Positions 6,741 to 22,818 are shown, counted from the first letter of the stretch. The stretch: 22,818 bases of DNA from Armatimonadota bacterium (GCA_037446215.1 JBBIJB010000030.1:1-22818); one strand, 5' to 3'. Notes: generated from the letters alone by a model not told the origin. A program made the numbers and translations.

Positions 6741-7726
6741 CAGTACCTCACCCTCGGGTCGAGCGCCGCGTAGAGCAGGTCGGTCAGCAGGTTCACGACG
6801 ACGAGCGCGGCTGAGACCATGACCAGTATGCCGAGCAGCACCGGCGTGTCCCGCTGGAGGATCGCGTCGTAGAGCAGGCGGCCGACGCCGGGCCATCCGA
6901 AGACCGTCTCCACGAGCGCCGAGCCCGCCAGCACGAACGCGAAGTTGTAGCCGATCACGGTGACCACCGGCAGCGCGGCGTTGCGCAGACCGTGCGAGAC
7001 CAGCACCGAGAGCTCAGGGACGCCCCTGGCGCGGGCCGCCAGTATGAAGTCCTGGCCCATCACCTCGAGCATGGAGGCCCGCGTCAGGCGTGAGATCAGA
7101 GCCATGTAACGGAACGAGAGCGCCGCAGCCGGGAGCACCAGGTGGCGCGCGACGTCGAGCGCCGCGGCGAGGCCGGTGTGCTCGACGCGAACCGACCTGA
7201 TCCCCTGCGCCGGCAGCCACCCGAGGAAGACCGCGAAGAGCAGCACGAGCAACTGGGCCAGCCAGAAGTCGGGGATCGAGTAGCCGGCGAGCGCAACCCC
7301 TGTGGAGGCCGAGTCGAGGGCCGATCGCGGCCGCCGGGCCGCTATGACGCCCAGCGTCACCCCGACAACCGCGGCCAGCGACAGCGCGGTCGCCATCAGC
7401 AGGATGGTGTTGCCGAGCCGCTCGGCGACCAGCCGTGCCACGGGCAGTCGGTAGGCGAACGAGTAACCGAGCTGGCCGCGCGCCACGTTCCACGCGTAGA
7501 GGGCGAGGCGTACAGGCGCCGGCCGGTCGAGCCCGTACTCCTGCCGCAGCTGCGCCACGTACTCGGGAGGCGCGGGATACTCCCCGAGGAGCGTGGTCAC
7601 AGGATCTCCGGGAGCGGCGGATACGAGCAGGAAGTTGACGACTATGACTCCCAGCAGCAGCGGGACGGCCTGTGCCAGCCGTCCCGCCGCGTACCGCCAG
7701 AGCGGCGCGCTACCCGTCGTCACCAC
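6740..7726 (-). CDS. Dpp/Opp-family ABC transporter permease (DppB/OppB-like)
   Basis: APGDPV, YGLDRP, SIPDFWL, FILAARARG, LRNAALPVVT, VETVFGWPGVG, LYAALDPRVR; GGAG SD before GTG. Confidence 0.93.
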   Translation of the reverse strand: MVTTGSAPLWRYAAGRLAQAVPLLLGVIVVNFLLVSAAPGDPVTTLLGEYPAPPEYVAQLRQEYGLDRPAPVRLALYAWNVARGQLGYSFAYRLPVARLVAERLGNTILLMATALSLAAVVGVTLGVIAARRPRSALDSASTGVALAGYSIPDFWLAQLLVLLFAVFLGWLPAQGIRSVRVEHTGLAAALDVARHLVLPAAALSFRYMALISRLTRASMLEVMGQDFILAARARGVPELSVLVSHGLRNAALPVVTVIGYNFAFVLAGSALVETVFGWPGVGRLLYDAILQRDTPVLLGILVMVSAALVVVNLLTDLLYAALDPRVRY

Positions 7727-7768
7727 AACTCCGGCGCCGCCATCGCCCTTCGCGGCTCTGCTGTCTGG

Positions 7769-9346: not shown

Positions 9347-9383
9347 CGCCTCTTCCCTCCAAGGGATACCGGTGAGACACCAG

Positions 9384-9405
9384 GCAGGATCGTAGCAGGA
9401 TCGTA
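9384..9405. repeat. Perfect 11-bp tandem direct repeat upstream of the SBP gene, overlapping a candidate extended -10
   Basis: GCAGGATCGTA at 9384-9394 and 9395-9405. On the minus strand it reads TACGATCCTGC x2, which contains TG-C-TACGAT. Confidence 0.6.
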
Positions 9406-9688
9406 TGTCGTTCGGTGTCTCTTTGACAGAGGAGAGGCGCCTCCCTTCCCCTGTCCGCCACCGGCTGCCCTCGAGGCTCGATTCGCCCGCTCGCCCTCAA
9501 CCGCCAATCCCAGCCCGATGGAAGCCCGACCTGAAGGGCGTGGTCCTCCATGACAGGACGAATGCCAGGAGCTTCCAGGCCGGCGGAAGGACAGAGTTCG
9601 ACCTCTTCTCGGGACTCACCGCCGCGGGCGCTGTCTTGCCTGCGGGATCGGTCTCTGTCTCGACGGTGCAGCCGGCGCCGTAGCACCG

Positions 9689-10168
9689 CTATCCAAAGCG
9701 CCCGTCCGACCTGCGGCTGGCGACCCTCCGCCGCGCCCTCTCGAGCCACCCTGTGCGCACCTGCGTCGGCTCATCGAAGTCGGGCACGTAGGGTTTCACG
9801 TCGAGCAACGGCGTGCCATCGAGGATGTCCAGGTCCTCGATGTACATGGTGCGGCCGCGAACACGGCGAAGGCGCACGACCGATATGCCTATCGGGTTCG
9901 GCCGCCTCGGCGCCCGGGTCGCGAACACGCCGCGCGGCCTGGAGTCCAGGAAGGGGACCACGTGAAGCGTGAACCCCTTGCTACGGTGGAGGTGGTAGAC
10001 GAGGATCACATGCGAGAACCCCTGGAGGTCCTTCAGGCCGGCCCGGAACTCCTCAAAGATCTCGACCGTGCCCCTGACCCCGGCAGCCCCCGCGGGCTGG
10101 ATGGGCATGCCCTCGGTCCGCGCGAAGGGCGAGTGGACGATGCCGATCGGCCTGTACTCGATCCTCAT
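9689..10168 (-). CDS. trmO: tRNA m6t6A37 methyltransferase TrmO/TsaA family (single SAM-binding barrel domain)
   Basis: PIGIVHSPF, GLKDLQGFSHVILVYHLH, GVFATRAPRRPNPIGISVV, LDILDGTPLLDVKPY; strong SD AGGAGGGAG. Confidence 0.9.
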   Translation of the reverse strand: MRIEYRPIGIVHSPFARTEGMPIQPAGAAGVRGTVEIFEEFRAGLKDLQGFSHVILVYHLHRSKGFTLHVVPFLDSRPRGVFATRAPRRPNPIGISVVRLRRVRGRTMYIEDLDILDGTPLLDVKPYVPDFDEPTQVRTGWLERARRRVASRRSDGRFG

Positions 10169-10174
10169 CCCGGG

Positions 10175-10779
10175 TCACTCCCTCCTGCCGGCCGGCAGCG
10201 GCTCCTGCCCGTCGAGCACAACGACCGCGCGCAGGAGAACCTCGGCGCCCAGCGCGGCATCTTCGGGATTGGTCTGCTCGCGCGGGGAGTGGCTGATGCC
10301 GCCGATGCTCGGGACGAAGATCATCCCGGCGGGGACGCGCTTAGCCAGAACCATCGCATCGTGGCCGGCGCCGCTCGGCATCTGATAGGGCTCGAAGCCC
10401 CGCTCCGAGATGGCTTCCAGAAGGGTGTCGCGGACGCCGGCATCCAGCGGCACCGGCTCCCGGAGGTCCCAAGGGTCCATGCCGCACTCCAGCCCGCTTC
10501 GCTGCCCGGCGGCCAGAAGCTCCTCGCCCGCCTCGTCACACAGCAGCAGCGCGCCGACTGTGCCGGCTGAAGGTGGGCCAGGGCGGCTCGCCGGTCCGTG
10601 CTCTGTGTGCAACTCGAGATGGACCCCGATGTCGCGGGGAATGCCGCAGTCATGCTTCCTTCAGGCACCATGCCGAGGTGGGGGGGCAGCGCTATCGAAG
10701 GCCATCGTTGGCGCGCGATCGACGTCCAGCAGGCAACGGTCGGGGACATCACACCAGTTGATCCTCGCGACGCCCTCAC
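10175..10779 (-). pseudogene. M20-family N-carbamoyl-amino-acid/allantoate amidohydrolase (HyuC/AllC-like), heavily deleted
   Basis: C-terminus is intact (MPSGAGHDAM, MIFVPSIGGISHSPRE). Degenerate DIGVHLELHTEHGP (cf. LELHIEQGP) at about 10592-10633, and AGTVG. Only about 600 bp remain where such enzymes are about 410 aa, and there is an in-frame stop upstream. The 5' boundary is approximate. Confidence 0.8.
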
Positions 10780-12359
10780 GTGAATGCGGGACGCCGCAGC
10801 GCCCGCCCCGCTCTGGCTCCAGTGTCCTCGCCACCGTCGATCACGAGTTGCCCGTTCACCACAACATCCACGACCCCTTCGCAGAACTTGTGGGGGTCCC
10901 GATACGTCGCACGCTCCGAGATCTTCTCCGGGTCGAAGACAACGAGGTCGGCCTTGAATCCGGGGCGAACGAGCCCCATGTCGTGGGCCCGTAGACGTCT
11001 AGCCGGGAGAGATGTCATCTTGCGCACTGCCTCTTCCAGGGTCAGAACCTGCTCGTCTCTCACGTACCTGCCAAGAACCCTCGCATATGTACCGTAGCTG
11101 CGAGGGTGCGGCTTGCCGCCAGCTTTCGGGCCAAGCGTCCACCCGTCGCTTGCGACCGACACCATGGGGTGCCGCATCACGGTACGCACATCTTCCTCGG
11201 ACATGTTGAATGAGATCATCTGTGTGCTGCCTCGCTCAGCCTGCAAGAGGTAGAGAGCGGCGACGGCCAGAGGTTCGGCCCGTAGGGCAGCAATGTCCTT
11301 CAGCATCATCCCTTCGTACTGTTTGTTCGGACCGACTGATAGGTGGCCAATCATGACCGTGCCCAGATCGAAGTCGGTCCTAAGCTCGGCGACGTCCTTG
11401 GCTACAAGTGCATGCTCTTTCGGATCCTGAAGGCGCGCTAGCATTCGCTCAATGCCGCCTTCCAACAACCTTTGCGGCAGCACCGCTGTCAGGGTTGTGC
11501 TACCCGCCGCATAGGGATGTTGGTCCGCCATTACATCCTGGCCTTTGCTCCGGGCTCGATCAATCATGCCCAGGGCCTCTTTGGCGCGTCCCCAGTTCCT
11601 CTTGGCCGAGGCCTTCAGGTGGCTGATCTGCACGGGCACGTCGGCCGTGCGGCCTACGATCAGCGCCTCGCTAATGGCTTCCAGCAGCAGGTCTCCCTCG
11701 CTTCGAACGTGAGTGGAGTAGAACCCTCCGTACCTCGAGGCGACGCTCGCTAGGGCCACAAGTTCGCCGGTGGAGGCATAGCTGCCGGGAGGATAGACCA
11801 ATCCCGAGGACAGCCCAAAAGCGCCTGCCTCCATCCCGCGGGCGACGAGGGCTTCCATTCGGGTGAGCTCAGAGGGCCGCGGCTCGCGGGACTCAAAGCC
11901 CATCACCGCAATCCTGACCGCTCCGTGACCGACCTGGAGGGCGATGTTGCACGCAAGCGGCAGCCCCCCGAGAAGCACGAAATAGCCGTCAGCATCATTC
12001 CAGTCCCACGATAGGCCCGCGTCGAGGAAGGAGGTGTGGGAGCGCAGAAGGTCGAGTCGATCACTGCTCAGAGGGAACGGAGAGAAGCCACAGTTGCCCG
12101 CGAGCTGAGTCGTGACGCCCTGGCGCACCATGGCCTCGGCACGTGGGAACACAGGCAACGTGAAGTCCGAGTGAGTGTGAAGATCGACAAACCCCGGCGC
12201 TAGCACGTTGCCCGCGACGTCAACCGTCCGTTTTGCCCTGGAGCTCGACATCGCCCCAATTGAAGCAATCCGGTCGCCCTCGACAGCAACGTCAGCTTGG
12301 AATCGCGGGGCCCCGCTGCCGTCAACAACGCAGGCGTTCTTGAAGAGCAGATCAAACAT
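10776..12359 (-). CDS. N-acyl-D-amino-acid deacylase (D-aminoacylase) family amidohydrolase
   Basis: APGFVDLHTHSD, GVTT..GNCGFSP, GLSSGLVYPPG, THVRSE, ISHLK, ASDG, PHPRSYGTYARVLG, LEEAVRKMTSLPA. Confidence 0.9.
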   Translation of the reverse strand: MFDLLFKNACVVDGSGAPRFQADVAVEGDRIASIGAMSSSRAKRTVDVAGNVLAPGFVDLHTHSDFTLPVFPRAEAMVRQGVTTQLAGNCGFSPFPLSSDRLDLLRSHTSFLDAGLSWDWNDADGYFVLLGGLPLACNIALQVGHGAVRIAVMGFESREPRPSELTRMEALVARGMEAGAFGLSSGLVYPPGSYASTGELVALASVASRYGGFYSTHVRSEGDLLLEAISEALIVGRTADVPVQISHLKASAKRNWGRAKEALGMIDRARSKGQDVMADQHPYAAGSTTLTAVLPQRLLEGGIERMLARLQDPKEHALVAKDVAELRTDFDLGTVMIGHLSVGPNKQYEGMMLKDIAALRAEPLAVAALYLLQAERGSTQMISFNMSEEDVRTVMRHPMVSVASDGWTLGPKAGGKPHPRSYGTYARVLGRYVRDEQVLTLEEAVRKMTSLPARRLRAHDMGLVRPGFKADLVVFDPEKISERATYRDPHKFCEGVVDVVVNGQLVIDGGEDTGARAGRALRRPAFT

Positions 12360-12463
12360 CTGCTAAGCCTCGCAAGGGTACCCTCAGGGGCACGGGGTAG
12401 CACTCCCTTTGGGGAAGGGCAGGCGATCACCCAGAGCCGAAGGTTGCATCAGCTACGCCGGCA

Positions 12464-13378
12464 CTAGGCCTCGCGAGGCAGTGAAGGGTGGTGCTCCAGC
12501 CAGTGCCTGGCAATGTCGACGCGACGGCAGATCCACACTTCGCTGTGCCGCTCAACGTGGTCGAGAAACCGCGCTAACGCCGCCAATCGGCCCGGCCGTC
12601 CAGCTAGGCGCGCGTGGAGGCCGACGGACATCATTTTCGGCGAGGTCGCTCCTTCAGCGTAGAGCACATCAAACGAGTCCTTCAAGTAGGTGTAGAAGTC
12701 GTCGCCCGAATTGAACCCTTGTGCTGTTCCAAACTTCATGTCGTTGTTGTCGAGGGTGTAGGGGACCACAAGATGCTGACGGCCGGAGACCTCTACCCAG
12801 TACGGCAGGTCATCGTTGTATGCATCCGAGTCGTAGAGGAACCCTCCCTCTTCCACGACAAGCCGGCGCGTGTTGGGGCTGATTCTTCCCGTATACCAGC
12901 CAACCGGCCGATTGCCTGAAGCTCTCGTGATGCAGTCTACCGCCAACCTGATGTGCTCGCGCTCGATATCCTCCGACATGAACTGGTAGTCGATCCAGCG
13001 CCAGCCGTGGCTGACGATCTCGTGTCCGGCTTCGACCATCGCCGCTGCGGCATCTGGGTGTCGCTCGAGGGCCATAGCGACGGCGAAGAAGCTGATCTTG
13101 ATCGACCGCTCTTCGAAGAGGCGCAGCAACCTCCAGAACCCGACGCGGCTGCCGTACTCGTACACCGACTCGACCACCAGGCTCCTGGCACCCCGCAGAG
13201 GCTCCAGCCCGACGACCTCGTGCAGGTACACCTCGGAGCACTCATCGCCGTGGAGTATGGAGCGCTCACCGCCCTCCTCGTAATTGACCACGAATTGAAC
13301 GGCAAGGCGGGCGCCGGCCGGCCACTTCGGGTCTGGAGGGTTCCGGCCATACCCTACAAGATCACGCGGGTAGCGCAT
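12464..13378 (-). CDS. puuE: Allantoinase PuuE (polysaccharide-deacetylase fold)
   Basis: MRYPRDLVGYG..PPDPKWP..ARLAVQFVVNYEEGGE, YEYGSRVGFWR, HGWRWIDYQ, GWYTGR.SPNTRRL, YDSD.Y.DDLPYW, PYTLDNNDMKF. ATG at 13378 follows AAGGAGG inside the 3' end of hydA. Confidence 0.93.
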   Translation of the reverse strand: MRYPRDLVGYGRNPPDPKWPAGARLAVQFVVNYEEGGERSILHGDECSEVYLHEVVGLEPLRGARSLVVESVYEYGSRVGFWRLLRLFEERSIKISFFAVAMALERHPDAAAAMVEAGHEIVSHGWRWIDYQFMSEDIEREHIRLAVDCITRASGNRPVGWYTGRISPNTRRLVVEEGGFLYDSDAYNDDLPYWVEVSGRQHLVVPYTLDNNDMKFGTAQGFNSGDDFYTYLKDSFDVLYAEGATSPKMMSVGLHARLAGRPGRLAALARFLDHVERHSEVWICRRVDIARHWLEHHPSLPREA

Positions 13379-14762
13379 AGTCGCCTCCTTCGAACCGGGC
13401 TCGACGCAGAAAGCGTCCAAATCCATGTTGCCCCACGAATTGATCACCATCAACAATCCTTTGACCGCGCACCCATACCCCCGTGGGCGCTCCGCGCACG
13501 CGCATACCCTCGAAGAGATTGTAGTCAACCGCCATGTGGTGGGTTCTCGCAGTGATGGTACGGTCGATGCGCGGGTCGAAGAGCAGAATGTCGGCGTCGG
13601 CGCCGACAGCGAGGGTGCCTTTGCGCGGGTAGAGTCCAAACAGCTTGGCAGGATTGGACGCAGTCAGTTCGACGTATCGATTGAGAGAGATCCGCCCCTG
13701 TCCCACACCGATCTCATGGAGGACCATCATCCGATCCTCGATGGCCGGAACCCCGGTAGGGATATGCTCAAAACTGCCCCGCCCCAGGGTCTTCTTAGTG
13801 TCAAAGCTGAAGGGGCAGTGGTCTGTTGAGACAACGGCCAGCGACCCGTCACGAAGCCCCTCCCACAGCACCTCCTGGTCGCGTACCGTCCGAAATGGCG
13901 GAGAGCATACGTACTTGGCCCCTTCAAACCCCGGCTGGTTAAGGTCGTCCACTGTGAAGCGAAGATACTGGATACAGGTCTCCGCCCAAACCCGAGCGCC
14001 TCGGGACTGGGCGGCACGAACTTGTTCCAAGGCCAGTTCGCATGTCAGATGCACGACATAGAGCGGGGCCCCTGCAACGGCCGCAAGAGCAATTGCCCTT
14101 CCGGTCGCCTCACCCTCCAGTTCAGGGGGTCGGGTCAGCGCATGGAAGACCGGAGAGGAATTACCCGCAGCGAGGGCATCGCCAACAAGGACATCGATCA
14201 CATCACCGTTCTCCGCGTGGGCCATGACAAGAACTCCGCCTTGACTGGCGTACCTCATCGCCTTGAACAGCGAAGCATCATCGACCTGCAGGCTGCCCTT
14301 GAACGCCATGAACAGTTTGATAGAAGGAACACCCCATTCCGAAAGCAGAGGTATCTCGCGCAACACGGAAGGGGTGGGATCAGTCACGGCTACGTGGAAA
14401 GCGTAGTCGATGCACGCCTTTCCCTTGGCCTTCGTGTGCCAGAGGTCGAGTGCTTGGCGTAGACTAGCCCCCTCGGGCTGAATGACGAAGTCGATGTGCG
14501 ACGTTGTCCCGCCAAAGGCAGCTGCTACATGACCGGTATGAAAGTCATCGGCCGTGGTGGTGCGGGGAGTGGGCATATCAAGGTGCGTGTGGACGTCAAC
14601 ACCCCCTGGCAGGAGATACTGACCCCGGGCGTCCACAACCACCGCATTGGCGCTCGGAAGGCCGTGCCCAACAGCGGCTACGCGTTCGCCTTCGATCAGA
14701 AGGTCTGCCTGAAAGGCCTTGTCCGGGGTCACAATGGTACCGTTCACGAGAAGGGTGCGCAT
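13362..14762 (-). CDS. hydA: Dihydropyrimidinase / D-hydantoinase
   Basis: PGGVDVHTHLDMP, AAFGGTT, SIKLFMA (carbamylated Lys position), AHAENG, YVVHLT, AKYVCSPP.R, STDHCPF, NPAKLFGLYPRKG. Confidence 0.93.
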   Translation of the reverse strand: MRTLLVNGTIVTPDKAFQADLLIEGERVAAVGHGLPSANAVVVDARGQYLLPGGVDVHTHLDMPTPRTTTADDFHTGHVAAAFGGTTSHIDFVIQPEGASLRQALDLWHTKAKGKACIDYAFHVAVTDPTPSVLREIPLLSEWGVPSIKLFMAFKGSLQVDDASLFKAMRYASQGGVLVMAHAENGDVIDVLVGDALAAGNSSPVFHALTRPPELEGEATGRAIALAAVAGAPLYVVHLTCELALEQVRAAQSRGARVWAETCIQYLRFTVDDLNQPGFEGAKYVCSPPFRTVRDQEVLWEGLRDGSLAVVSTDHCPFSFDTKKTLGRGSFEHIPTGVPAIEDRMMVLHEIGVGQGRISLNRYVELTASNPAKLFGLYPRKGTLAVGADADILLFDPRIDRTITARTHHMAVDYNLFEGMRVRGAPTGVWVRGQRIVDGDQFVGQHGFGRFLRRARFEGGDYALPA

Positions 14763-14797
14763 TTGGGCTCCCTGAGCACCATGGACAAGCTCAATCT

Positions 14798-14808
14798 AGA
14801 ATACCACA
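14798..14808 (-). promoter_or_regulatory. Extended -10 promoter element for the hydA-puuE operon
   Basis: Minus strand reads TGTGGTATTCT (TG-n-TATTCT), about 35 nt upstream of the hydA ATG and its AGGGAG SD. Confidence 0.5.
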
Positions 14809-15129
14809 GGGCGAGGAATGCGCGCAGAGCGCGCGATGCCTCATCTGAAGTCGACCCCCAGTAGGGGGTGTTGGATCGATTCTGCGACATGCCTCGGCGA
14901 GGCTATGCCGTCTCCCCAGTGGCTCTGAAGACTCCGGCGACAGCTTGGCAGGCACACTGATAGGAACCTCGGCAGCGCTCGGCGGATTCCTACCCCAGCC
15001 GTTGGCCGCCTCCTCCCATTCGCGGCCATACGCAGGGCCACTCTCTCTGGAAGCCGGAAGAAGGACTTGGAGGGAAAAACGCCGAAAGTCCACACGCGCT
15101 TGTGAAAGCCGCCGAAGAGCGACCATGCA

Positions 15130-15145
15130 CGGCGTTCTTGCTGCA
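15130..15145 (+). promoter_or_regulatory. Possible sigma54 (-24/-12) promoter for the Liv-carbamoyltransferase-fix operon
   Basis: CGGCGTTCTTGCTGCA has GG-N10-GC spacing (GG 15131-2, GC 15143-4), about 40 nt before the ATG. The match to TGGCACG-N4-TTGCW is only partial. Confidence 0.25.
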
Positions 15146-15185
15146 CTCCCAGCTCGATACGTAGTCCGGTGGGAGGGTGATACTC

Positions 15186-16424
15186 ATGCGAAAGCCGGCA
15201 CTGTACGTCTTCGCGTGCCTACTGATCCTCATTCTCGCTCAGTCGTGGTGGCCGGCAGGTGCACAGCCACCAGGGGAAGTCCGAATCGGCGTATTGCTGC
15301 CCCTGTCGGGGCCGGATGCGATAGATGGGGAGAACCAGCGGCGCGCCTTCGAGATGGCCGCTGAAGACATCAACGCGCAGGGCGGCATCAAGTCGATGGG
15401 CGGCGCGCGTGTCCGGATGCTATATGGGGACACTCTCGGCCGGGCTGAGGTCGGCATAGCCGAGACCGAGCGCCTCATCACTCGCGAGCGGGTGGCGCTC
15501 CTTATGGGCACCTGGCATAGCGGGGTAGCGATCTCGGCAACGCTCGTTGCAGAACGCTACCGCGTACCGTTCCTGGTGTGCAATGCCCTTGTCGACGCCA
15601 TTAGCGAACGTGGCCTCAAATATACCTTCCACACGGTTTCGAGAACCAGCCAGTTCGCCGGTGACTCGGGGGCCTTTGTCAAGGCAATAGGAGACAGGAC
15701 CGGGAAGCGCGCCAAGCGCGTGGCAATTCTAAACGCGGATACGTTCTTCGGCCGCGAGGTTGCCCGGTTCTGGCGCAGGTTGCTGCCCGAACAGGGATAT
15801 GACCTGGTAACAGACGTTGCGTACGCCTCACCATCCACGAGCCAGATTGAGTCAATCCTCAAACTGCGGGCCGGACGACCTGATGTGGTGTTCATGTCGG
15901 CAAGCGTCGCGGATGCTACGATGACGGTTCGGCAGATGAAGGAAATGAGATACTGGCCGGAACTCGCAGTTGTCGCAATCGGAGGGGGCCCCAGCCACCC
16001 CACCTTCGTCGAGAACGTGGGGGAACTGGGTGAGGGCCTCTTCGCGGTAAACGACTGGTTCCCAAGTATCCGGCGGCCTCAGAGCAAGGAGCTAAATGAC
16101 CGCTTCCGCAAGAAGCACGGCGCGGACATGACCGGCAATGCCAACACCACATATGCTGCAGTCTGGATCGCCAAGGACGGGCTTGAGCGTGCCGGAACCG
16201 TTGACGGCGAGCGTCTCCGCCAGGCGATTGCGGACACTGACATCCGTACCGGCGTTCCCATGTTCATGTATGATCGAGTGAAGTTTGACGAGGCAGGGAA
16301 GAATGCATACGCTTTCAATGTCGTAGCCCAGCTGCAGAAGGGTTCTTTCCACGTCGTTCACCCGGTGCGTGTGGCCGTGGCAACAGCCCAGTGGCCTGTC
16401 CCGAACTGGGACGCCCGCCGGTGA
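15186..16424 (+). CDS. HAAT/Liv-family ABC transporter substrate-binding protein
   Basis: Signal peptide; VRIGVLLPLSGPDA..G, A.EDINAQGGIKSMGGA, ETERLI. ATG at 15186 follows a GGAGGGTGA SD. Confidence 0.9.
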   Translation: MRKPALYVFACLLILILAQSWWPAGAQPPGEVRIGVLLPLSGPDAIDGENQRRAFEMAAEDINAQGGIKSMGGARVRMLYGDTLGRAEVGIAETERLITRERVALLMGTWHSGVAISATLVAERYRVPFLVCNALVDAISERGLKYTFHTVSRTSQFAGDSGAFVKAIGDRTGKRAKRVAILNADTFFGREVARFWRRLLPEQGYDLVTDVAYASPSTSQIESILKLRAGRPDVVFMSASVADATMTVRQMKEMRYWPELAVVAIGGGPSHPTFVENVGELGEGLFAVNDWFPSIRRPQSKELNDRFRKKHGADMTGNANTTYAAVWIAKDGLERAGTVDGERLRQAIADTDIRTGVPMFMYDRVKFDEAGKNAYAFNVVAQLQKGSFHVVHPVRVAVATAQWPVPNWDARR

Positions 16425-16478
16425 CCATAGGAAAGGGTGTCCGGAGGCGGCCCACAGCCGCTTCCGGATCCTAACCGT

Positions 16479-17357
16479 ATGCAGACCGACCTCCTGACAT
16501 TCCTGCAATATGTTGCCAACGGCATAGTTCTCGGTGGCGTGTACGGCCTTGTCGCTGTGGGTCTGACGCTGATCTACGGGGTGCTCAAGATCATCAACTT
16601 CTCCCACGGCGAACTCGTCATGGGGGGGATGTACGTATCCTACTGGTGCTTCGTTCTCTGGCGGATCGATCCGTACGTCTCAGCCGTGATCAGTATGACT
16701 CTCTTCTTCTGCATCGGTGCGGTGTTGCAGCGTTATGTTGTAGAACCGATCATGCCGGCCCCTCAGATAAACCAGATCCTGCTAACGATCGGCGTCGGGT
16801 TGTTCCTGACCAACCTCGCTATGGTGCTCTTCTCGCCGGACACCCGCACGATTCACGTGAGCTACGCGACAACAACGATCTCGTTTTGGGGGGTCCTTGT
16901 CAGCATACCCCGCTTGGTGTCCTTCGTTGTCGCGATGGTGCTCAGCCTGGGGCTCTATCTCTTCCTGCGGGCCACTAGGCTCGGGAAAGCTGTCCGCGCT
17001 GCGGCCCAGGACCGAGAAGGTGCACAACTGGTGGGGATCGGGGCTCGCCAGGTCTTCATAATCGCGTTCGGCATTGGGGCAGGGATGGCAGCTGTCGCCG
17101 GTTCGCTGCTGACACCCTTCTATAACGTGCAGCCCACGGCCGGGGTGCCGTTCGTGCTAACGGCGTACGTGATCGTAGTGCTTGGAACGATGGGGAACTT
17201 CCTAGGAGCGCTCGTGGGCGCACTTCTAATCGGGGTTGCCGAGTCGGTGGGATCGTATCTCTTCTCGCCAGCCCTGAGGCAGCTTGTGAGCTTCAGCATC
17301 TTCATAGGGGTCCTGTTGTTCAAGCCCGAGGGGCTCTTCGGGGGCAAGGCCTCATGA
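16479..17357 (+). CDS. livH: Liv-family ABC transporter permease (LivH-like)
   Basis: NGIVLGGVYGLVAVGLTLIYGVLKIINFSHGE, TRLGKAVRAAAQDREGAQLVGI, LLFKPEGLFG. Start is ATG 16479 or GTG 16437. Confidence 0.9.
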   Translation: MQTDLLTFLQYVANGIVLGGVYGLVAVGLTLIYGVLKIINFSHGELVMGGMYVSYWCFVLWRIDPYVSAVISMTLFFCIGAVLQRYVVEPIMPAPQINQILLTIGVGLFLTNLAMVLFSPDTRTIHVSYATTTISFWGVLVSIPRLVSFVVAMVLSLGLYLFLRATRLGKAVRAAAQDREGAQLVGIGARQVFIIAFGIGAGMAAVAGSLLTPFYNVQPTAGVPFVLTAYVIVVLGTMGNFLGALVGALLIGVAESVGSYLFSPALRQLVSFSIFIGVLLFKPEGLFGGKAS

Positions 17358-18361
17358 GAGTGACAAGCTGGCCCGAGGCGGAGAGAGCCATCACCCTGTT
17401 GCTCCTGGTGGGGCTGGCCCTGGTGCCACTCGCGCGCCCCGCCCCATATCTGCTGCACGTCCTGATAGCCATGATCCTCTACGCGGCTGTTGGCCAGGCG
17501 TGGAACCTCCTTGGCGGATACGCAGGACAGCTCTCGATCGGCCACATCATGTACTTCGGCGTCGGAGCGTATGCAGCGGGATACCTGTGGACGGCGTTTG
17601 GCGTTTCCCCATGGGTCGGGATCCTGATAGGGGGCGCGCTCGCCGCGTTCCTCGGGTTGGCGGTATCGCTAATCAGCCTCCGATATGGGCTCCGTTTGGA
17701 CTACTACGCGCTGTTCACTCTCGCTGTCTCACAGATTCTCCGTACGATCGCCTTGAACACGGAAGCAGTTGGGGAAGCCATGGGGATCTACATCCCCGGG
17801 GGCAGCCATAACCCCCTGATGATGCAGTTTGAAACCAAGACCCCGTACTACTTCATCAGCCTTGGGCTGCTTGCGGCGATTACCTTCGTGATCTATGCAA
17901 TACACCGAACCAAGATGGGGGCGTACCTAGCGGCCATCCGCGAGAATGATGCCGCGGCAGAAGCATCAGGCGTAAACACAGTGTTCTACAGAGCCGCGTG
18001 CACCTCCCTCAGTGCGGCACTGACGGCGGCCGCCGGCGCTGTGTTTGCGGTATACACGACGTTCATAGACCCTGACCTGGTGCTGGGCATAGGACCCAAC
18101 TTCGAGTTCCTACTAGTGGCCATCGTCGGCGGTCGTGGAACGCTGTTCGGCCCCATCCTGGGAGCGGTGCTCCTCAGGTCAATAAGCGAGACCAGCCGGG
18201 TTGCGCTGGGTGCCGCCCCGGCAGGCTTTCACCTAATGGTATACGGCGCTGCGCTGATCGCGGTCGTTCTCTTTGTACCCCAGGGGCTGGCTGGGGTGGT
18301 GAGGGCGGTTTGGGCCAACATAGGCCGGCGTGGAGTTCGAGATAATCCTCAGGTGACCTAG
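17354..18361 (+). CDS. livM: Liv-family ABC transporter permease (LivM-like)
   Basis: WNLLGGYAGQLSIGH..FGVGAY, AIRENDAAAEASGVN, GGRGTLFGPILGA, PQGL; ATGA overlap with livH. Confidence 0.9.
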   Translation: MRVTSWPEAERAITLLLLVGLALVPLARPAPYLLHVLIAMILYAAVGQAWNLLGGYAGQLSIGHIMYFGVGAYAAGYLWTAFGVSPWVGILIGGALAAFLGLAVSLISLRYGLRLDYYALFTLAVSQILRTIALNTEAVGEAMGIYIPGGSHNPLMMQFETKTPYYFISLGLLAAITFVIYAIHRTKMGAYLAAIRENDAAAEASGVNTVFYRAACTSLSAALTAAAGAVFAVYTTFIDPDLVLGIGPNFEFLLVAIVGGRGTLFGPILGAVLLRSISETSRVALGAAPAGFHLMVYGAALIAVVLFVPQGLAGVVRAVWANIGRRGVRDNPQVT

Positions 18362-18363
18362 CC

Positions 18364-19089
18364 ATGTCGCTGCTAGCGGTAGAACACCTCACCAAACGGT
18401 TCGGGGGGTTGGTGGCTCTCTCCAATGTCACGATTACCGTCAACCAGGGAGAGATCGTGGGCTTGATCGGCCCAAACGGTGCTGGAAAGACCACGCTCTT
18501 TGCTGCCATCTCGGGGTTCCTCCGCCCCGACATGGGATCGGTTAGGTTCAAGGAACACGACATCACCGGCCTACACCCACATCGGATCTGCCAACTCGGC
18601 ATGGCTCGTACGTTCCAGTTGGTGCAGCCGTTCGTCGGCCTGTCGGTTCTAGAGAACGTTACCATCGGAGCCTTCAATCGCACCGGCAGCACGCTCGCCG
18701 CGCGGAGTCGCGCCAGCGAGATCCTAGAGATGGTGGGCCTGAGTCAGCGCCAGCACGACACGGCGTCGGCCCTTACACCGGCGGAGAGAAAGCGGCTTGA
18801 GGTTGCCCGGGCCCTGGCTACTGCGCCCGACCTGCTGTTGCTCGACGAGGTGATGAGCGGCCTGACGCCAGCAGAAACCGCCCAGGTGATGGATCTGGTG
18901 CGTCAGATCAGGGATCGCGGCATAACCGTGATGACTATCGAGCACGTCATGCAAGCGGTAATGAAGCTGGCAGACAGGGTTGTGGTGCTCCACCACGGAG
19001 AGAAGATCGCGGAGGGCACGCCTGCGACAATAGTGCAGGACCCCGCAGTGATCGAAGCCTACCTTGGTCAAGGGGATAGTCGTGCTTGA
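18364..19089 (+). CDS. livG: Liv-family ABC transporter ATP-binding protein (LivG-like)
   Basis: KRFGGLVAL, GLIGPNGAGKTT, ARTFQ, LLLLDE, IEHVM, VIEAYLG. Confidence 0.92.
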   Translation: MSLLAVEHLTKRFGGLVALSNVTITVNQGEIVGLIGPNGAGKTTLFAAISGFLRPDMGSVRFKEHDITGLHPHRICQLGMARTFQLVQPFVGLSVLENVTIGAFNRTGSTLAARSRASEILEMVGLSQRQHDTASALTPAERKRLEVARALATAPDLLLLDEVMSGLTPAETAQVMDLVRQIRDRGITVMTIEHVMQAVMKLADRVVVLHHGEKIAEGTPATIVQDPAVIEAYLGQGDSRA

Positions 19090-19783
19090 GGTTAGAGGCG
19101 CAACGGCAGGATACGGGGAAGTAATGATTCTCCGGGAGGTCACCCTGACGGTTGCCCCCGGCGAACTCGTCGCCCTCGTTGGCAGCAATGGGGCGGGTAA
19201 GACAACGTTGCTGCGCACGATCTCGGGCTTCCTGCGACCGCGGGGCGGGACGATTGCCTTCCTTGGAAGGCGGATTGACAGCACTCTGCCTCATGAGATC
19301 GTCTGCGCGGGCCTGGCCCACGTCCCCGAGGGGAGGCGGCTGTTCCCCGAGATGTCCGTGTTGGAGAACCTGGAGATGGGCGCGTTTACTCGCGGCTCCG
19401 CCGAGATGAAGTCGTCCATGGCGTGGGTGTTCGAGCTTCTGCCGGTCCTTAAGGATCGGAGGGAACAGCGCGCCGGCACCCTCAGCGGAGGGGAGCAGCA
19501 GATGCTCGCAATCGGCCGCGCCTTGATGGCTCACCCGCAACTACTGATGCTCGACGAGCCTTCCCTCGGACTTGCCCCCCTCGTCGTCCGACGCGTACTG
19601 GAGACAATCGAGACGATAAGCGCCCAAGGCGTGGCCATCCTCCTCGTGGAGCAGAATGTGAGCCACGCCCTGCGCCTAGCTTCCCGTGCATATGTCCTGG
19701 AGAACGGGACCATCGCAATGACCGGCACAGGGAAAGAGCTCCTCTCCAGCGACCACGTGCGGCGGGCGTATCTGGGGCTGTAG
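19082..19783 (+). CDS. livF: Liv-family ABC transporter ATP-binding protein (LivF-like)
   Basis: GSNGAGKTT, HVPEGRRLFP, TLSGGEQQMLAIGRALM, LDEPSLGLAP, LVEQN, AYLGL. Likely start is the GTG at 19082, overlapping the livG end. Confidence 0.92.
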   Translation: MLEVRGATAGYGEVMILREVTLTVAPGELVALVGSNGAGKTTLLRTISGFLRPRGGTIAFLGRRIDSTLPHEIVCAGLAHVPEGRRLFPEMSVLENLEMGAFTRGSAEMKSSMAWVFELLPVLKDRREQRAGTLSGGEQQMLAIGRALMAHPQLLMLDEPSLGLAPLVVRRVLETIETISAQGVAILLVEQNVSHALRLASRAYVLENGTIAMTGTGKELLSSDHVRRAYLGL

Positions 19784-19850
19784 GCATCCATCAACGTACG
19801 GCCGAAGCAGAAAGACCACGTGCGCATATCCTGGTAGCAAGGGGGGCCAG

Positions 19851-20900
19851 ATGATTACACAGAATCTCAAGGGCCGGGACTTCATATCACTCCGCGACTT
19901 CACCAAGCCCGAGATCGAGAGCATGCTCGACGTCGGCCTGCAACTCAAGGCCGACAACGCGATGCGTCGTCGCCACGGCGATATCTTGCCCGGTAGGACG
20001 CTCTTCATGATGTTCTTCAACCCCTCACTCAGAACGCGGAACAGCTTCGAGGCGGGCATGTTCCAACTCGGCGGGCATGCCCACTTTCTCGAGCCCTCGT
20101 CCGCTCGACTGCCGGCTCTCGAGGGTGAAGAGATCGCATACCAGACCGAGCGCATCTCCGACGTTGCCCGCGTTCTCTCCAGCATGGGGGATGCCATTGC
20201 GATTCGCATACTAGGCGATCCCGTCGGCTGGGAGTACGAGAAGGCCCTCAGGATAATCCGGGAGTTCGCGAGGTGGTCTGACATACCCGTAATCAACATG
20301 GAGGACAACATCTACCATCCGTGCCAGGGGATGGCAGACGTGATGACGTTGTGGGAGATGTTCGGGAGAGATCTTCGCGGCCGCAAGCTCGGCGTGAGTT
20401 GGACTTACTCACCCAGCACCAAGAAACCCATCGCCCCCCACCACGACTTCATGTACGCGGCCAGCCTCTTCGGACCAGACATCGTGTACGCTCGACCGCA
20501 AGAGATGCGAATAGACCCCGAAGTAGAAGCCGCAATACGGGCGAACGTGGAAGCCAGCGGGGGTTCGTACACGGTGGTCGAAGAGATGGAAGAGGCGTGC
20601 AGCGGTGCCGACGTGGTCTACGCAAAGAACCACGTGTGCCTGGATCTGCTCCCCCCGTACGCTCCGGCTCCGAAGCACGATGAGATGGCGAAGTTGTTTG
20701 CGAAGTACAAGGGATGGATTGCTGACGAGAGTCGGATGAAGCTCGGCAAACCGGACGTGAAGTACATGCACTGCCTCCCCTGCGAGCGTGGCTTTGAGGT
20801 TAGCAACGAGGTCATGGACGGACCCTGGAGCGCGGTGTTTCAGGAGGCGGAGAACAGGCTGCACGCTCAGAAAGGCGTAATGGCGCTCACTCTCCCGTAG
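19851..20900 (+). CDS. Carbamoyltransferase of the knotted YgeW/N-acetylornithine carbamoyltransferase group; substrate unknown
   Basis: Carbamoyl-phosphate-binding motifs FFNPSLRTR, AIR, HPCQ and MHCLP; proline-rich loop SWTYSPSTKKPIAP; EAENRLHAQK. Lacks the OTCase DxxxSMG ornithine motif. Confidence 0.85.
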   Translation: MITQNLKGRDFISLRDFTKPEIESMLDVGLQLKADNAMRRRHGDILPGRTLFMMFFNPSLRTRNSFEAGMFQLGGHAHFLEPSSARLPALEGEEIAYQTERISDVARVLSSMGDAIAIRILGDPVGWEYEKALRIIREFARWSDIPVINMEDNIYHPCQGMADVMTLWEMFGRDLRGRKLGVSWTYSPSTKKPIAPHHDFMYAASLFGPDIVYARPQEMRIDPEVEAAIRANVEASGGSYTVVEEMEEACSGADVVYAKNHVCLDLLPPYAPAPKHDEMAKLFAKYKGWIADESRMKLGKPDVKYMHCLPCERGFEVSNEVMDGPWSAVFQEAENRLHAQKGVMALTLP

Positions 20901-20959
20901 ATCCAAGCGGAGGCGCGCAGACCACCTGACTCATGCAGGGCTCGGGAGGCCTCTAGCCC

Positions 20960-22255
20960 GTGGAAGAGTTTGAAGTAGCGGTTATCGGCGCGGGACCTGC
21001 CGGGGCTACGGCGGCCTATCTGCTTGCGAAGTCGGGCCTGAGCGTCTTGCTGATTGAGCGCGGAACGTATCCGGGCAGCAAGAACGTATCGGGAGGTCTC
21101 ATCTACACGGAGGTCCTGGGCCAGGTCTACCCTGGGTTCTGGGAAGAGGCACCTATTGAGCGACCGATTACGGGGCATGATATCGTTCTCCTGGGCGGGG
21201 ACGCAGCGGTCGCTCTGTCCTTCCGGAAGGCCGCGGTAGAATCCGCGGCCCCACCGCACAACGCGTACAGCGTCCTCAGGGCAAGATTCGACCCCTGGCT
21301 GGCGGGAAAGGCGGAGGCGGCCGGCGCGACGCTGGTGACCGGAGTCACGGTCGACAAGCTCGTTATCGAGAACGACCGGGTGGTAGGAGTCCAGGCTGGT
21401 CCGGACAGGGTCGCGGCGAACGTCGTGGTCGACGCGGAGGGAACACGGGCGCTGCTCTTGAGGCAGGCCCGGTTGATTGGGCCCTTTCACTCAGGCGAGG
21501 TGTCTCTGGGCATAAAGGAAGTCATACGGCTCCCCGAGGGTACAATCCACGAGCGGTTCCTCTGTTCCCGCCAGACAGGAACGGCTCTGACAATGATTGG
21601 TCACACTCTGGGGGTTTCGGGCGGAGGCTTCCTGTACACGAACCGCGACTCGCTCTCGGTGGGGGTCGTGGCCAAGCTTGACTCCCTTCACAGGAGCGGG
21701 CGACGCCCTCACGAGATCCTGGGTGAGTTCAAAGCCCACCCCTTCGTCTCCAGGCTGGTTGAAGGTGGCGAGGTAGTGGAGTACTCTGCCCAGACAGTCC
21801 ATCAGGGAGGGCTACATCACTCATCGACGCTGTGCGGGGATGGCTACGTGGTCGTGGGCAGCGCTGCCCGCCTGATACTGAATAACCTCTTCACACTCCG
21901 CGGCATGGATCTTGCCGTGGTCTCTGGCGTGGCGGCAGCGCAGGCGGTCCTAGAGGCACACCGCCGCAACGACTTCTCCGCCTCGGCCCTATCGGTCTAT
22001 CGAGACTACCTGAGAAGCACCCCCGTGTACCAGGACATGGAAACATTCCGCGGCGCACGTTCCGTGCTGAGCAACAGGAGATTCTTCGAGATCTACCCCG
22101 ACCTTGCATGCGCAGTGACGGAGGAGTTGTTCGCCGTCCACAAGACGCCCAGCACAAAGCTGTTCAGGATACTAAGGGACAAAGCAAAGGGGAAGGTCTC
22201 AGGCCTAGACCTCGTTAGAGATGCCGCTGCACTCGCGCGGGTGCTGGCAATATGA
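20960..22255 (+). CDS. fixC: FixC-family FAD-dependent ETF:quinone oxidoreductase
   Basis: VIGAGPAG, ERGTYPGSKNVSGG, FWEEAPIERPI, YSVLRARFDPWL, GGGFLYTNRDSLSVG, EYSA, RGMDLA. Confidence 0.9.
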   Translation: MEEFEVAVIGAGPAGATAAYLLAKSGLSVLLIERGTYPGSKNVSGGLIYTEVLGQVYPGFWEEAPIERPITGHDIVLLGGDAAVALSFRKAAVESAAPPHNAYSVLRARFDPWLAGKAEAAGATLVTGVTVDKLVIENDRVVGVQAGPDRVAANVVVDAEGTRALLLRQARLIGPFHSGEVSLGIKEVIRLPEGTIHERFLCSRQTGTALTMIGHTLGVSGGGFLYTNRDSLSVGVVAKLDSLHRSGRRPHEILGEFKAHPFVSRLVEGGEVVEYSAQTVHQGGLHHSSTLCGDGYVVVGSAARLILNNLFTLRGMDLAVVSGVAAAQAVLEAHRRNDFSASALSVYRDYLRSTPVYQDMETFRGARSVLSNRRFFEIYPDLACAVTEELFAVHKTPSTKLFRILRDKAKGKVSGLDLVRDAAALARVLAI

Positions 22256-22545
22256 CGAGCGAGCGGTCGACCCTAGACCACCTGCTGGGTTTCGACAAGT
22301 TCGAGATCGACAGGTCGAGTCACATAACGATAGACCAAGCCAGGTGCGCATCCTGCCCTCAGATGCCGTGTCTTACAGTCTGCCCGGCAGGGGTGTACAG
22401 ACAGGTTCATCAGAACGTCGTCGCCGCCCATGAGAACTGCCTTGAGTGCGGCGCGTGCAAGATCTCGTGCGACTCAGACGGAAATGCGGGGATCACATGG
22501 CGAAATCCTAGCGCAGGATTCGGCATTATCTTCCGATTCGGCTAG
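22252..22545 (+). CDS. fixX: FixX ferredoxin-like protein
   Basis: SHI.I, CASC...PCLTVCPAGVY, NCLECGACKISC, W.NP..GFGI.FRFG; ATGA overlap with fixC. Confidence 0.9.
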   Translation: MTSERSTLDHLLGFDKFEIDRSSHITIDQARCASCPQMPCLTVCPAGVYRQVHQNVVAAHENCLECGACKISCDSDGNAGITWRNPSAGFGIIFRFG

Positions 22546-22572
22546 AACTAGGCCGCCAGAGGGCAACACTCA

Positions 22573-22818
22573 ATGAAGATCGCAGCCTGCGTCAAGTACT
22601 CTCTAGATGTGGCGGAGATCCGGGTTGACGTCCCCACCCGAAAGCTTCTGTTGACAGGGGTACCGAGGAAACTCGGCAACGTCGACAAGAACGTCTTGGA
22701 GACTGCCGTTATGCTGAAGGAGGCCCATGGCGGTAGTGTCCATGCGCTGGGCTTTGGACCACCAGAGGCAAAGGACGCACTGCTGCGAGAGGCCCTTGCG
22801 ATGGGGGCGGATGAAGCG
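22573..22818 (+). CDS. fixA: Electron transfer flavoprotein beta subunit (FixA/EtfB), truncated by the window end
   Basis: Not in the ORF track. Manual translation gives MKIAACVKYSLDVAEIRVD...NVDKNVLETAVMLKEAHGGSV.ALGFGPPEAKDALLREALAMGADEA, the typical ETF-beta N-terminus. Confidence 0.9.
   Translation, partial: MKIAACVKYSLDVAEIRVDVPTRKLLLTGVPRKLGNVDKNVLETAVMLKEAHGGSVHALGFGPPEAKDALLREALAMGADEA

Follow-up and report, generated by a model that had tools for sequence, protein, structure and literature searches.

In soil, sediment and animal hosts, purine breakdown yields allantoin and related ureides as major nitrogen-rich products, and textbook bacterial routes hydrolyse their ureido groups, wasting their energy. 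The gene for an oxamate carbamoyltransferase outside the enterobacteria has been sought since the 1960s. A phosphorolytic alternative to hydrolysis was reported by Barba et al. (2013, PMC4016543) for a pseudo-ATCase of Rubrobacter xylanophilus, which in vitro converts allantoate to ureidoglycine with arsenate and produces carbamoyl phosphate with phosphate, and whose gene is placed there between those for allantoinase and carbamate kinase. In the oxamate branch of E. coli, as set out in PMC11326118 and PMC12535856, the M20 enzyme AllC hydrolyses the first ureido group, the NAD-dependent AllD oxidises ureidoglycolate, and AllFGH cleaves oxalurate. Here we analyse 22,818 nucleotides from an Armatimonadota bacterium (GCA_037446215.1; draft genome of 2.16 Mb in 149 contigs), that is, positions 1-22818 of the 26798-nt contig JBBIJB010000030.1 (C30), hereafter called the window. 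The block that begins at ~10.7 kb and fills the rest of C30 forms, with the final ~3 kb of a second contig (C21), one horizontally acquired island of ~19 kb that carries two divergent operons, and with slightly more confidence than doubt we read this island as degrading allantoin and conserving energy as ATP through a seven-step scheme.

In this scheme, an ABC importer of the HAAT type would take up the ureide (step 1), and the allantoinase PuuE would open allantoin to allantoate (step 2). A carbamoyltransferase encoded beyond the window, CT2, would split allantoate with phosphate into (S)-ureidoglycine and carbamoyl phosphate (step 3), and an aminohydrolase would turn ureidoglycine into (S)-ureidoglycolate (step 4). 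A DAO-family flavoprotein (DAO) would then oxidise ureidoglycolate to oxalurate, passing electrons to the electron transfer flavoprotein (ETF; FixAB) and on to quinone via FixCX (step 5), and a second carbamoyltransferase, CT1, would use phosphate to cleave oxalurate, releasing oxamate and a second carbamoyl phosphate (step 6). Carbamate kinase would finally make ATP from both carbamoyl phosphates (step 7); most other genomes have its gene within the cluster, and in this one it lies elsewhere. No other scheme finds a role for every gene of the main operon. A preliminary description of this DNA had proposed that a cyclic ureide is imported, that its ring is opened by hydrolysis and its carbamoyl group released phosphorolytically as carbamoyl phosphate, and that a redox step is coupled to ETF/FixCX, and this general logic fits; its single carbamoyltransferase gives way to the two that are encoded, and its view that the route had no precedent is overtaken by the phosphorolysis of allantoate published in 2013 (PMC4016543).

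The steps differ in how they are supported. The phosphorolysis of allantoate by CT2 is supported by a characterised relative and by gene context, and the predicted PuuE, aminohydrolase and carbamate kinase steps are supported by family-level tests. We infer steps 5 (DAO/ETF/FixCX) and 6 (CT1), for which the support is indirect and consists of the linkage of CT1, ETF and DAO, a short-chain dehydrogenase found at the DAO position in some loci, and the lack of another ureidoglycolate consumer. Since the island contains no KARI-like (ketol-acid-reductoisomerase-like) gene, a frequent neighbour of CT1 elsewhere, DAO is its sole candidate for consuming ureidoglycolate.

CT2 (contig positions 25697-26695) is an ATCase-like carbamoyltransferase, or "pseudo-ATCase", whose scores lie below the cut-offs for true ATCases (TIGR00670, 200.6 vs 236.95; NF002032, 187.3 vs 263). 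It has the carbamoyl-phosphate motifs STRT (within FFQPSTRTR) and HPTQ (within EHPTQ), HTLP (H291-P294) in place of the ATCase HPLP, and G250-C251-S252 in place of the aspartate-binding R-x-Q, all of them invariant in 8/8 aligned orthologues. STRT, HPTQ, HTLP and the loss of R-x-Q are given as signatures of pseudo-ATCases, or UGTCase, in PMC4016543 and PMC4581275, and Shi et al. (2015, PMC4581275) give H(T/S)LP as the motif of the assayed Rubrobacter enzyme. In a scan for CT2, 24 of 77 new loci were inspected. AllB, an allantoinase unrelated to PuuE, adjoins CT2 in 10/10 inspected loci of Actinomyces, Trueperella, Cellulomonadaceae and Bifidobacteriaceae, and 8/10 of these loci contain carbamate kinase as well. 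Cultured Actinomyces and Trueperella pyogenes carry racemase-carbamate kinase-AllB-CT2 clusters (CT2 at 59-62% identity) without CT1 or DAO, so that CT2 is tied to allantoinase independently of the CT1/DAO module. The same scan returned a Rubrobacteraceae genome with a CT2 at 69% identity adjoining carbamate kinase.

The corresponding context of allantoinase and carbamate kinase exists here too, with PuuE and the aminohydrolase in the island and carbamate kinase elsewhere in the genome. PuuE (12464-13378, minus strand) belongs to the metal-independent allantoinases by its score of 499.7 against the equivalog domain TIGR03212 (cut-off 424.6; model positions 1-296 of 297). Its ATG at 13378 is preceded by an AAGGAGG ribosome-binding site, and the gene overlaps the end of hydA. 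The gene directly after CT2 encodes an (S)-ureidoglycine aminohydrolase, with its N-terminus on the end of C30 and a C21-encoded part scoring 264.7 on TIGR03214 (cut-off 200). Outside the island, a carbamate kinase on contig C100 reaches 383.6 on NF009007 (cut-off 266) and 352.7 on the equivalog TIGR00746, just below its cut-off of 358.25; a second copy, on C118, was detected by tblastn only.

CT1 (19851-20900, plus strand; OTCace_N and OTCace domains) had been called YgeW-like, an assignment that its scores on the YgeW equivalogs contradict (NF005538, 107.9 against a cut-off of 453; TIGR03316, 99.9 against 500), YgeW itself (3q98) lying far down the lists of solved matches. The protein resembles N-acetylornithine carbamoyltransferase (AOTCase) instead: NF003384 is its best family, at 253.6, below the cut-off of 288, and the Xanthomonas enzyme (3kzc, 3m5c) is its best match in both sequence and fold. 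The AlphaFold model of CT1 (pLDDT 95.7) superposes best on 3m5c, with TM-scores of 0.88/0.93 at 36% identity, and the two proteins align gap-free through the extended 120's loop and the proline-rich loop, SWTYSPSTKKPIAP in CT1 aligning to TWTYHPKPLNTA in AOTCase. These two loops are the recognition criteria given for knotted transcarbamylases by Shi et al. (2015, PMC4581275); CT1 has both, which would place it in the structural group of AOTCase, SOTCase and YTCase. CT1 further shares with AOTCase the extended 80's loop, SxRTR, HPxQ, HCLP and the Lys of the YAK motif, and is set apart from it by the modest identity, the score below the family cut-off and a catabolic context (ETF, DAO, carbamate kinase and allantoin genes) in place of arginine biosynthesis. 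Roles of CT1 or CT2 in arginine or pyrimidine biosynthesis were rejected on these scores below cut-offs and on gene context. In a maximum-likelihood tree, 16 sampled CT1 orthologues (67-81% identity) form one clade with 100/100 support and a long stem, in which Chloroflexota, Actinomycetota, Spirochaetota, Thermodesulfobacteriota and one Asgard bin are mixed. The substrate of CT1 would be oxalurate or another ureido acid, split with phosphate.

The linkage of CT1 to DAO is conserved across many genomes. A scan with CT1 gave 80 loci, 63 of which contain an orthologue at no less than 60% identity, and a DAO gene is present in 43 of these 63. The two genes are co-stranded in 42 of the 43; they are directly adjacent in 7, and in the other 35 nothing recognised lies between them except ETF, FixCX or carbamate kinase genes. 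The fix genes follow CT1 and the DAO-family flavoprotein in this manner (42/43 loci) and not an acyl-CoA dehydrogenase operon, an association that the preliminary description had named as a danger to its reading. Neighbours were identified by all-against-all clustering of open reading frames (ORFs) followed by Pfam and NCBIfam scans, and co-occurrence was counted over the 32 loci having CT1 at at least 60% identity and at least 19 kb of sequence. DAO occurs in 25 of these 32 loci, ETF in 22-23, the ureidoglycine aminohydrolase in 22, carbamate kinase and CT2 in 20 each, a KARI-like reductase in 19, FixC and AllB in 18 each, and an Asp/Glu/hydantoin racemase in 12. Such neighbours score above curated cut-offs (AllB, 521.7 vs 357.85; aminohydrolase, 248.7 vs 200; carbamate kinase, 385.6 vs 358.25). 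The right arm is thus conserved across phyla.

The left arm behaves differently. PuuE at at least 40% identity is found in 1 of the 32 loci, a dihydropyrimidinase-type HydA at at least 35% identity in 4, and the aminoacylase in none, and the two arms, which had been expected to travel together, do not co-occur. Failure to co-occur had been named beforehand as grounds for abandoning the idea, and this is what was found for the left arm as such; the allantoinase function is still usually present, in the form of AllB. The CT1-DAO linkage and the co-occurrence counts therefore place the fix genes with CT1 and DAO and make the left arm specific to this island, where PuuE most likely acts as the allantoinase in place of the AllB of other genomes. 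Among six DAO-less loci examined, a short-chain dehydrogenase directly precedes CT1 in two (L058 and L025), which fits alcohol oxidation feeding CT1. In L058 (8986-12230), from a soil Actinomycetota, the CT1-like gene that follows the short-chain dehydrogenase is itself followed by a CT1 paralogue at 47-51% identity.

Downstream of CT1, the operon encodes a FixC-like flavoprotein of the ETF:quinone oxidoreductase family (20960-22255, plus strand), a FixX-like ferredoxin (22252-22545, plus strand; Fer4 family matches including Fer4_ETF_QO) and the 5' part of ETF-beta (fixA; 22573-22818, plus strand, continuing beyond the window; PF01012). The FixC-like protein scores 39 bits on PF21162, the ETF-QO ubiquinone-binding domain (cut-off 27.7), and lies below the cut-offs of NF007450 (362.9 vs 466) and of the FixC model NF007542 (343.6 vs 610), and the FixX-like protein gives 43 on NF011993, below 166. 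The window stops just before a run of 10 N inside fixA (C30 22819-22828; L001 13820-13829), on either side of which the two halves of the gene lie in different frames and match one and the same ETF-beta homologue. A frameshift in fixA was rejected, the break being this scaffold gap. About 4 kb more of the operon follows on C30, with the remainder of ETF-beta, ETF-alpha (fixB), DAO (388 aa) and CT2, so that all four FixABCX components are present (Pfam ETF, ETF_alpha, ETFQO_UQ-bd and Fer4/Fer4_ETF_QO). Reading past 22818 thus yielded the fixB and the flavin dehydrogenase that had been anticipated there, whereas the anticipated carbamate kinase and regulator do not appear in the island. The nearest solved relatives of DAO are the Pyrococcus protein 1y56_B (annotated as a "sarcosine oxidase" beta chain), dimethylglycine dehydrogenase and glycine oxidase. 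DAO would use ureidoglycolate and electrons would flow from it toward quinone; the open-access literature searched contained no link of allantoin or oxalurate to an electron transfer flavoprotein.

Several observations weigh against this reading of the island. The functions proposed for the CT1 and DAO clades are drawn from sequence and context. The sole oxamate transcarbamylase identified according to PMC11326118, E. coli AllFGH, is unrelated to the family of CT1, and cleavage of oxalurate by CT1 would for that reason be unprecedented. Barba et al. place H[ST]LP, paired with the loss of R-x-Q, in their Table 1 in subgroup 2 of the pseudo-ATCases and not in that of the assayed enzyme (PMC4016543). 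The solved structures nearest to DAO belong to amine oxidoreductases rather than hydroxy-acid dehydrogenases, and AlphaFold models its substrate domain poorly (mean pLDDT 71, below 50 at residues 230-328). Neither a carbamate kinase nor a regulator is encoded within the island. The KARI-like reductase, present in 19/32 loci, has no role in the proposed route; it occurs in 34 loci overall, between the aminohydrolase and CT1, and the example in L005 (8438-9949), followed by a Thioredoxin_9 protein, exceeds the cut-off of TIGR00465 (280.6 vs 226) and falls short of that of NF004017 (325.8 vs 336). CT1-like genes (73-78% identity, the L058 gene among them) also turn up in other surroundings, between formiminotransferase and GcvT in L057 (8389-12279) and beside a xanthine-dehydrogenase pair in L032 (5631-11050). 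Finally, the delta-proteobacterial locus L044 has ETF, DAO, carbamate kinase and CT1 beside a dihydropyrimidinase, with no CT2, AllB or aminohydrolase within 21 kb. Its genes (4043-19559) encode ETF-beta, an ETF-alpha with an N-terminal ferredoxin domain, DAO, a GntR regulator, carbamate kinase and CT1 (67%), and with them a dihydropyrimidinase-type enzyme, a Liv-type importer, a ferredoxin and an aldehyde:ferredoxin oxidoreductase.

Loci such as L044 raise the question of whether CT1 and DAO form a separate module acting after a hydantoinase or dihydropyrimidinase, with only CT2, PuuE and the aminohydrolase serving allantoin. HydA would then produce N-carbamoyl-glycine, -sarcosine or -beta-alanine, CT1 would split the product into carbamoyl phosphate and an amine, and DAO/ETF/FixCX would oxidise the amine. 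A full-scoring D-hydantoinase does adjoin the operon, DAO does resemble sarcosine and glycine oxidases, and both L044 and the likewise delta-proteobacterial L045 pair CT1, carbamate kinase, DAO and ETF with a dihydropyrimidinase-type enzyme in the absence of allantoin genes, the enzyme of L044 reaching 481 bits on TIGR02033 with an aldehyde:ferredoxin oxidoreductase nearby. Glycine-cleavage genes occur in 11-12 loci, and the formiminotransferase and GcvT genes flanking the CT1-like gene of L057 point the same way. However, glycine-cleavage neighbours are few, the ring-opening enzyme beside CT1 is AllB in 18/32 loci and a dihydropyrimidinase-type HydA in only 4, and CT1 and DAO co-occur in most loci with the allantoin-specific aminohydrolase. 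On this balance we consider a separate amine-oxidising module unlikely.

A somewhat smaller likelihood attaches to a route in which DAO acts one step earlier, oxidising the amine of (S)-ureidoglycine to an imine and hence to oxalurate and ammonia, with CT1 again cleaving oxalurate and the aminohydrolase, with the KARI-like enzyme where present, forming a parallel branch. The relatives of DAO among solved structures and NCBIfam matches, which are glycine, sarcosine, dimethylglycine and proline-type oxidoreductases, suit an amine substrate, DAO and CT1 are coupled just as in the seven-step scheme, and the KARI-like gene of 19/32 loci gains a role as a separate ureidoglycolate dehydrogenase. Ureidoglycine is, however, described as labile (PMC4016543), and the aminohydrolase, present in 22/32 loci, would compete for it. 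In this island, moreover, ureidoglycolate would be left without a consumer, and the short-chain dehydrogenases at the DAO position in L058 and L025 point to an alcohol as the substrate. We keep ureidoglycolate as the more likely substrate of DAO.

The remaining genes of the left arm are HydA, a D-hydantoinase/dihydropyrimidinase (13362-14762, minus strand; TIGR02033, 591 vs cut-off 393), and a D-aminoacylase-family amidohydrolase (10776-12359, minus strand; Amidohydro_3, PF07969). HydA is 69% identical to a host paralogue on contig C83 and ~30% identical to the AllB allantoinases of related loci. Among solved structures, the aminoacylase is best matched by D-aminoacylase 1m7j (313 bits) and by N-acyl-D-glutamate deacylase 3gip/3giq (282 bits); a host paralogue on C48 and proteins of same-genus genomes share 62-65% identity with it. 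The 79 other loci returned by a scan with the aminoacylase lie at 34-45% identity, and the operon is present at none of them. No donor of the left arm emerged from these 79 loci, and the closest sequences are the host lineage's own paralogues. HydA and the D-aminoacylase-like enzyme are most likely an accessory set through which more kinds of hydantoins and N-carbamoyl compounds could be hydrolysed. In the host genome, the aminoacylase paralogue on C48 adjoins XdhC and MobA, and on C83 (L331 4763-8109) two PHO4 phosphate transporter genes lie between an Xdh-like gene and the HydA paralogue, an asparaginase following; phosphate transporters beside ureide enzymes would suit phosphorolytic decarbamoylation.

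The hydantoinase and the aminoacylase also invite comparison with the reductive (2,8-dioxopurine) urate pathway, of whose lower half the island could be a variant, with HydA acting as HyuA and the two carbamoyltransferases and the aminoacylase stripping both ureido groups from 2,3-diureidopropionate. HydA does fall in the HyuA family (TIGR02033), and the aminoacylase belongs to the family of UacY, described as the replacement of YgeW in C. difficile (PMC12507026). Nevertheless, the markers ssnA, xdhD/xdhA, ygfK/uacX and ygeX were searched for among the island ORFs and none was found, CT1 lies far below the YgeW cut-offs, and the conserved partners of the right arm are allantoin-specific (AllB, ureidoglycine aminohydrolase, racemase). 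Furthermore, the host has an anaerobic purine cluster of its own on C17 (L093 1-17000) and C100 (L092), with an SsnA-like amidohydrolase (423 bits vs cut-off 444), an Xdh-like molybdoenzyme with its FAD subunit, adenine deaminase and tandem carbamoyltransferases, one of which is cut at the contig end and continues on C100 before the carbamate kinase. Same-genus relatives have the same tandem carbamoyltransferase pair, at 41-44% and 32-36% identity to CT1. We therefore give this variant little credence, and the analogy to the YgeW pathway drawn in the preliminary description is replaced by allantoin, not 2,3-diureidopropionate, as the most likely substrate.

The foreign origin of the island is apparent from its composition and its junctions. 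Its G+C content is ~0.61, against a genome mean of 0.687 (standard deviation 0.017), giving the lowest 5-kb windows genome-wide; the drop from ~0.69 to ~0.61 occurs near 10.7 kb and is held to the end of C30, and the last ~3 kb of C21 are alike. In the same-genus genome G001, an intact gene of the M20 hydantoinase/carbamoylase family directly adjoins trmO, whereas here M20 and trmO are on separate contigs, parted by the low-G+C block. The M20 gene on C21 is of full length and departs from that of G001 over its last third, and beside trmO C30 carries only a decayed copy of the M20 3' end (10175-10612, minus strand), which covers profile positions ~305-417 of 418 in carbamoylase/allantoate amidohydrolase models. 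This fragment has 74.5% DNA identity to the 3' end of the G001 gene, a host-like G+C content (~0.68-0.70) and internal deletions in the alignment, and in protein alignment to G001 M20 it reaches 69%, vs 63% for the C21 version. The pattern fits an element that integrated into the M20 gene and brought its own replacement 3' end. Because the arrangement across C21, C30 and G001 matches such an integration, the "dead M20" once counted with the operon is no degenerate pathway member; the fragment is the 3' end of the host gene, displaced, and forms the scar of integration at the island's left edge.

At the other edge, the last 57 nt of C30 are the first 19 codons of a further gene. The reverse-complemented end of C21 starts with the same 9 nt that close C30 and carries on in frame, and an N-terminal motif conserved in the aminohydrolase family spans the join. 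In 40 relatives, down to order level, CT1 has no match above 44% identity (the 40 include two unpublished genomes, G015 and G024, and the result is independent of those two), and the best public match, at 81% identity, is in an Anaerolineales genome. An assembly chimera, or contamination of the bin, is scarcely credible as the source of the low-G+C block, for although its G+C shift at ~10.7 kb is sharp, it is the compositional extreme of the bin, none of the relatives carries it and its contig has a 10-N scaffold gap, both junctions were found, on two contigs, joined to host-type DNA that is contiguous in G001 (M20 then trmO), the host M20 is split as by integration with its original 3' end on the far side, the C30 and C21 ends meet inside one gene, and HydA (69%) and the aminoacylase (62-65%) are closest to the lineage's own paralogues; with both junctions located and the order compared with G001, a chimeric contig was rejected. 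At the right end of the island, after the hybrid M20 gene, C21 also carries a low-G+C SBP_bac_5 binding-protein gene (30705-32297; L091 6706-8298) with weak GsiB/NikA-like matches, which converges on the aminohydrolase gene and is unaccompanied by permease genes.

The importer genes precede CT1 in the right arm, all on the plus strand: a substrate-binding protein of the HAAT family (Liv/Urt-like; 15177-16424), two livH-/livM-like permeases (16437-17357 and 17354-18361; BPD_transp_2 twice) and two livG-/livF-like ATPases (18364-19089 and 19064-19783; ABC_tran twice). The binding protein gives 177 bits on Peripla_BP_6 and is far below the UrtA and LivJ cut-offs, and the permeases and ATPases all fall below those of LivHMGF and UrtBCDE. 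Its nearest solved homologue is 8WCH (175.6 bits, the next best 75.8), reported as SAR11_0655 bound to L-pyroglutamate, a five-membered lactam, with a Kd <5 nM (PMC11485210). This likeness is a lead rather than evidence for the ligand of the binding protein, and it shows the ligands of this subfamily to extend beyond branched-chain amino acids. The transported substrate would be a ureide.

All genes named in the preliminary description were recovered in place by ORF, Pfam and NCBIfam scans, and in both operons neighbouring genes are separated by small or negative gaps. The intergenic region shared by the two divergent operons was likewise recovered, with its right edge moved: the spacer occupies 14763-15176 (414 nt) and does not extend to 15185. 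A riboswitch, promoter or operator was sought in this spacer; no Rfam family, sigma-70-like promoter or terminator-like site was found in it, and its repeats are short and at chance level, with no convincing operator repeat.

Outside the island, two further features of the window were recorded. At 822-2282 (and 3-825), a 486-aa ORF combines an XPB damage-recognition domain, ResIII, Helicase_C and a piece of DUF790; this piece is Bax1-like, and a HEPN/nucleotidyltransferase pair lies immediately upstream. The Bax1-like DUF790 is usually a separate partner protein. At 2986-9346, a luciferase-like oxidoreductase (PF00296) adjoins an Opp-type ABC transporter (SBP_bac_5, two permeases and an ATPase). 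Li and co-workers reported in 2025 that uricolytic clusters of Chloroflexota carry a luciferase-family, putatively F420-dependent enzyme.

If both ureido groups are removed with phosphate as proposed, allantoin would be an energy source for anaerobes and facultative soil bacteria, each molecule yielding two ATP by substrate-level phosphorylation plus respiratory electrons. That CT1, DAO, FixAB and FixCX together represent an undescribed means of harvesting the second ureido group of allantoin, through an ETF-linked ureidoglycolate/ureidoglycine dehydrogenase and an oxamate carbamoyltransferase of the transcarbamylase family, is a tentative proposal that we rate as a serious possibility short of an even chance. 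If it is correct, this would be a widespread module, shared by Chloroflexota, Actinomycetota, Spirochaetota and further phyla and able to move from one to another, and functions would be gained for two large mis-annotated clades, "N-acetylornithine carbamoyltransferase" and "FAD-dependent oxidoreductase / glycine oxidase". The open-access literature searched did not link the CT1-DAO-ETF-FixCX half to allantoin, oxalurate or any other substrate, and held nothing on UGTCase biochemistry newer than 2018. As the island shows, the entire set can be transferred in one piece between distant lineages; the island also makes a transcarbamylase-type oxamate carbamoyltransferase and an ETF-linked ureide dehydrogenase directly testable.

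Among described systems, the reductive urate pathway (ygeW-ygeX-ygeY-hyuA-yqeA and ygfK-ssnA-xdhD, as given in PMC12507026 and bioRxiv 10.1101/2025.04.24.650524) resembles the proposed route in that a hydantoin ring is opened, a knotted-type carbamoyltransferase acts with phosphate and ATP is made via carbamate kinase, the D-aminoacylase-family UacY being described as a hydrolytic alternative (PMC12507026). It differs in its substrate, 2,3-diureidopropionate from reduced urate, in ssnA, xdhD, ygfK and ygeX, which the island lacks, and in YgeW, of which CT1 is no orthologue. FixABCX, or ETF with ETF:quinone oxidoreductase, has the same four gene types as the island, where they stand beside the flavin dehydrogenase that they would serve; the island set is unlike it in having as partner a DAO-family enzyme in a ureide cluster, not a nitrogenase- or carnitine-linked system, and in FixC and FixX proteins that lie below the curated cut-offs.

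The R. xylanophilus cluster (Rxyl_2847; PMC4016543) shares with the island an allantoinase, a pseudo-ATCase and carbamate kinase, allantoate being split with phosphate, and CT2 has the motifs of this family, its orthologues standing in a like gene context. As described there, that cluster has one carbamoyltransferase and no DAO, ETF, FixCX or CT1 module, whereas the allantoinase of the island is PuuE rather than the amidohydrolase type and its carbamate kinase lies outside. The oxamate branch of E. coli and Streptococcus allantoicus (AllB, AllC, AllE, AllD, AllFGH and AllK; PMC11326118, PMC12535856) passes through the same intermediates as the proposed route, namely, allantoate, ureidoglycine, ureidoglycolate, oxalurate and oxamate, and likewise gains ATP via carbamate kinase. 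No Pfam match to AllFGH-type proteins (FdrA, YlbE, YlbF) occurs among the island ORFs, the rest of the genome not having been searched for these specifically. Unlike in E. coli, three of the steps would be carried out by CT2, DAO/ETF/FixCX and CT1, with two carbamoyl phosphates released in place of one, and CT1 would then be a second, unrelated solution to the oxamate transcarbamylase reaction besides AllFGH. Set against these systems, the CT2 half of the route is known in kind, and the CT1-DAO-ETF-FixCX half is conserved and widespread.

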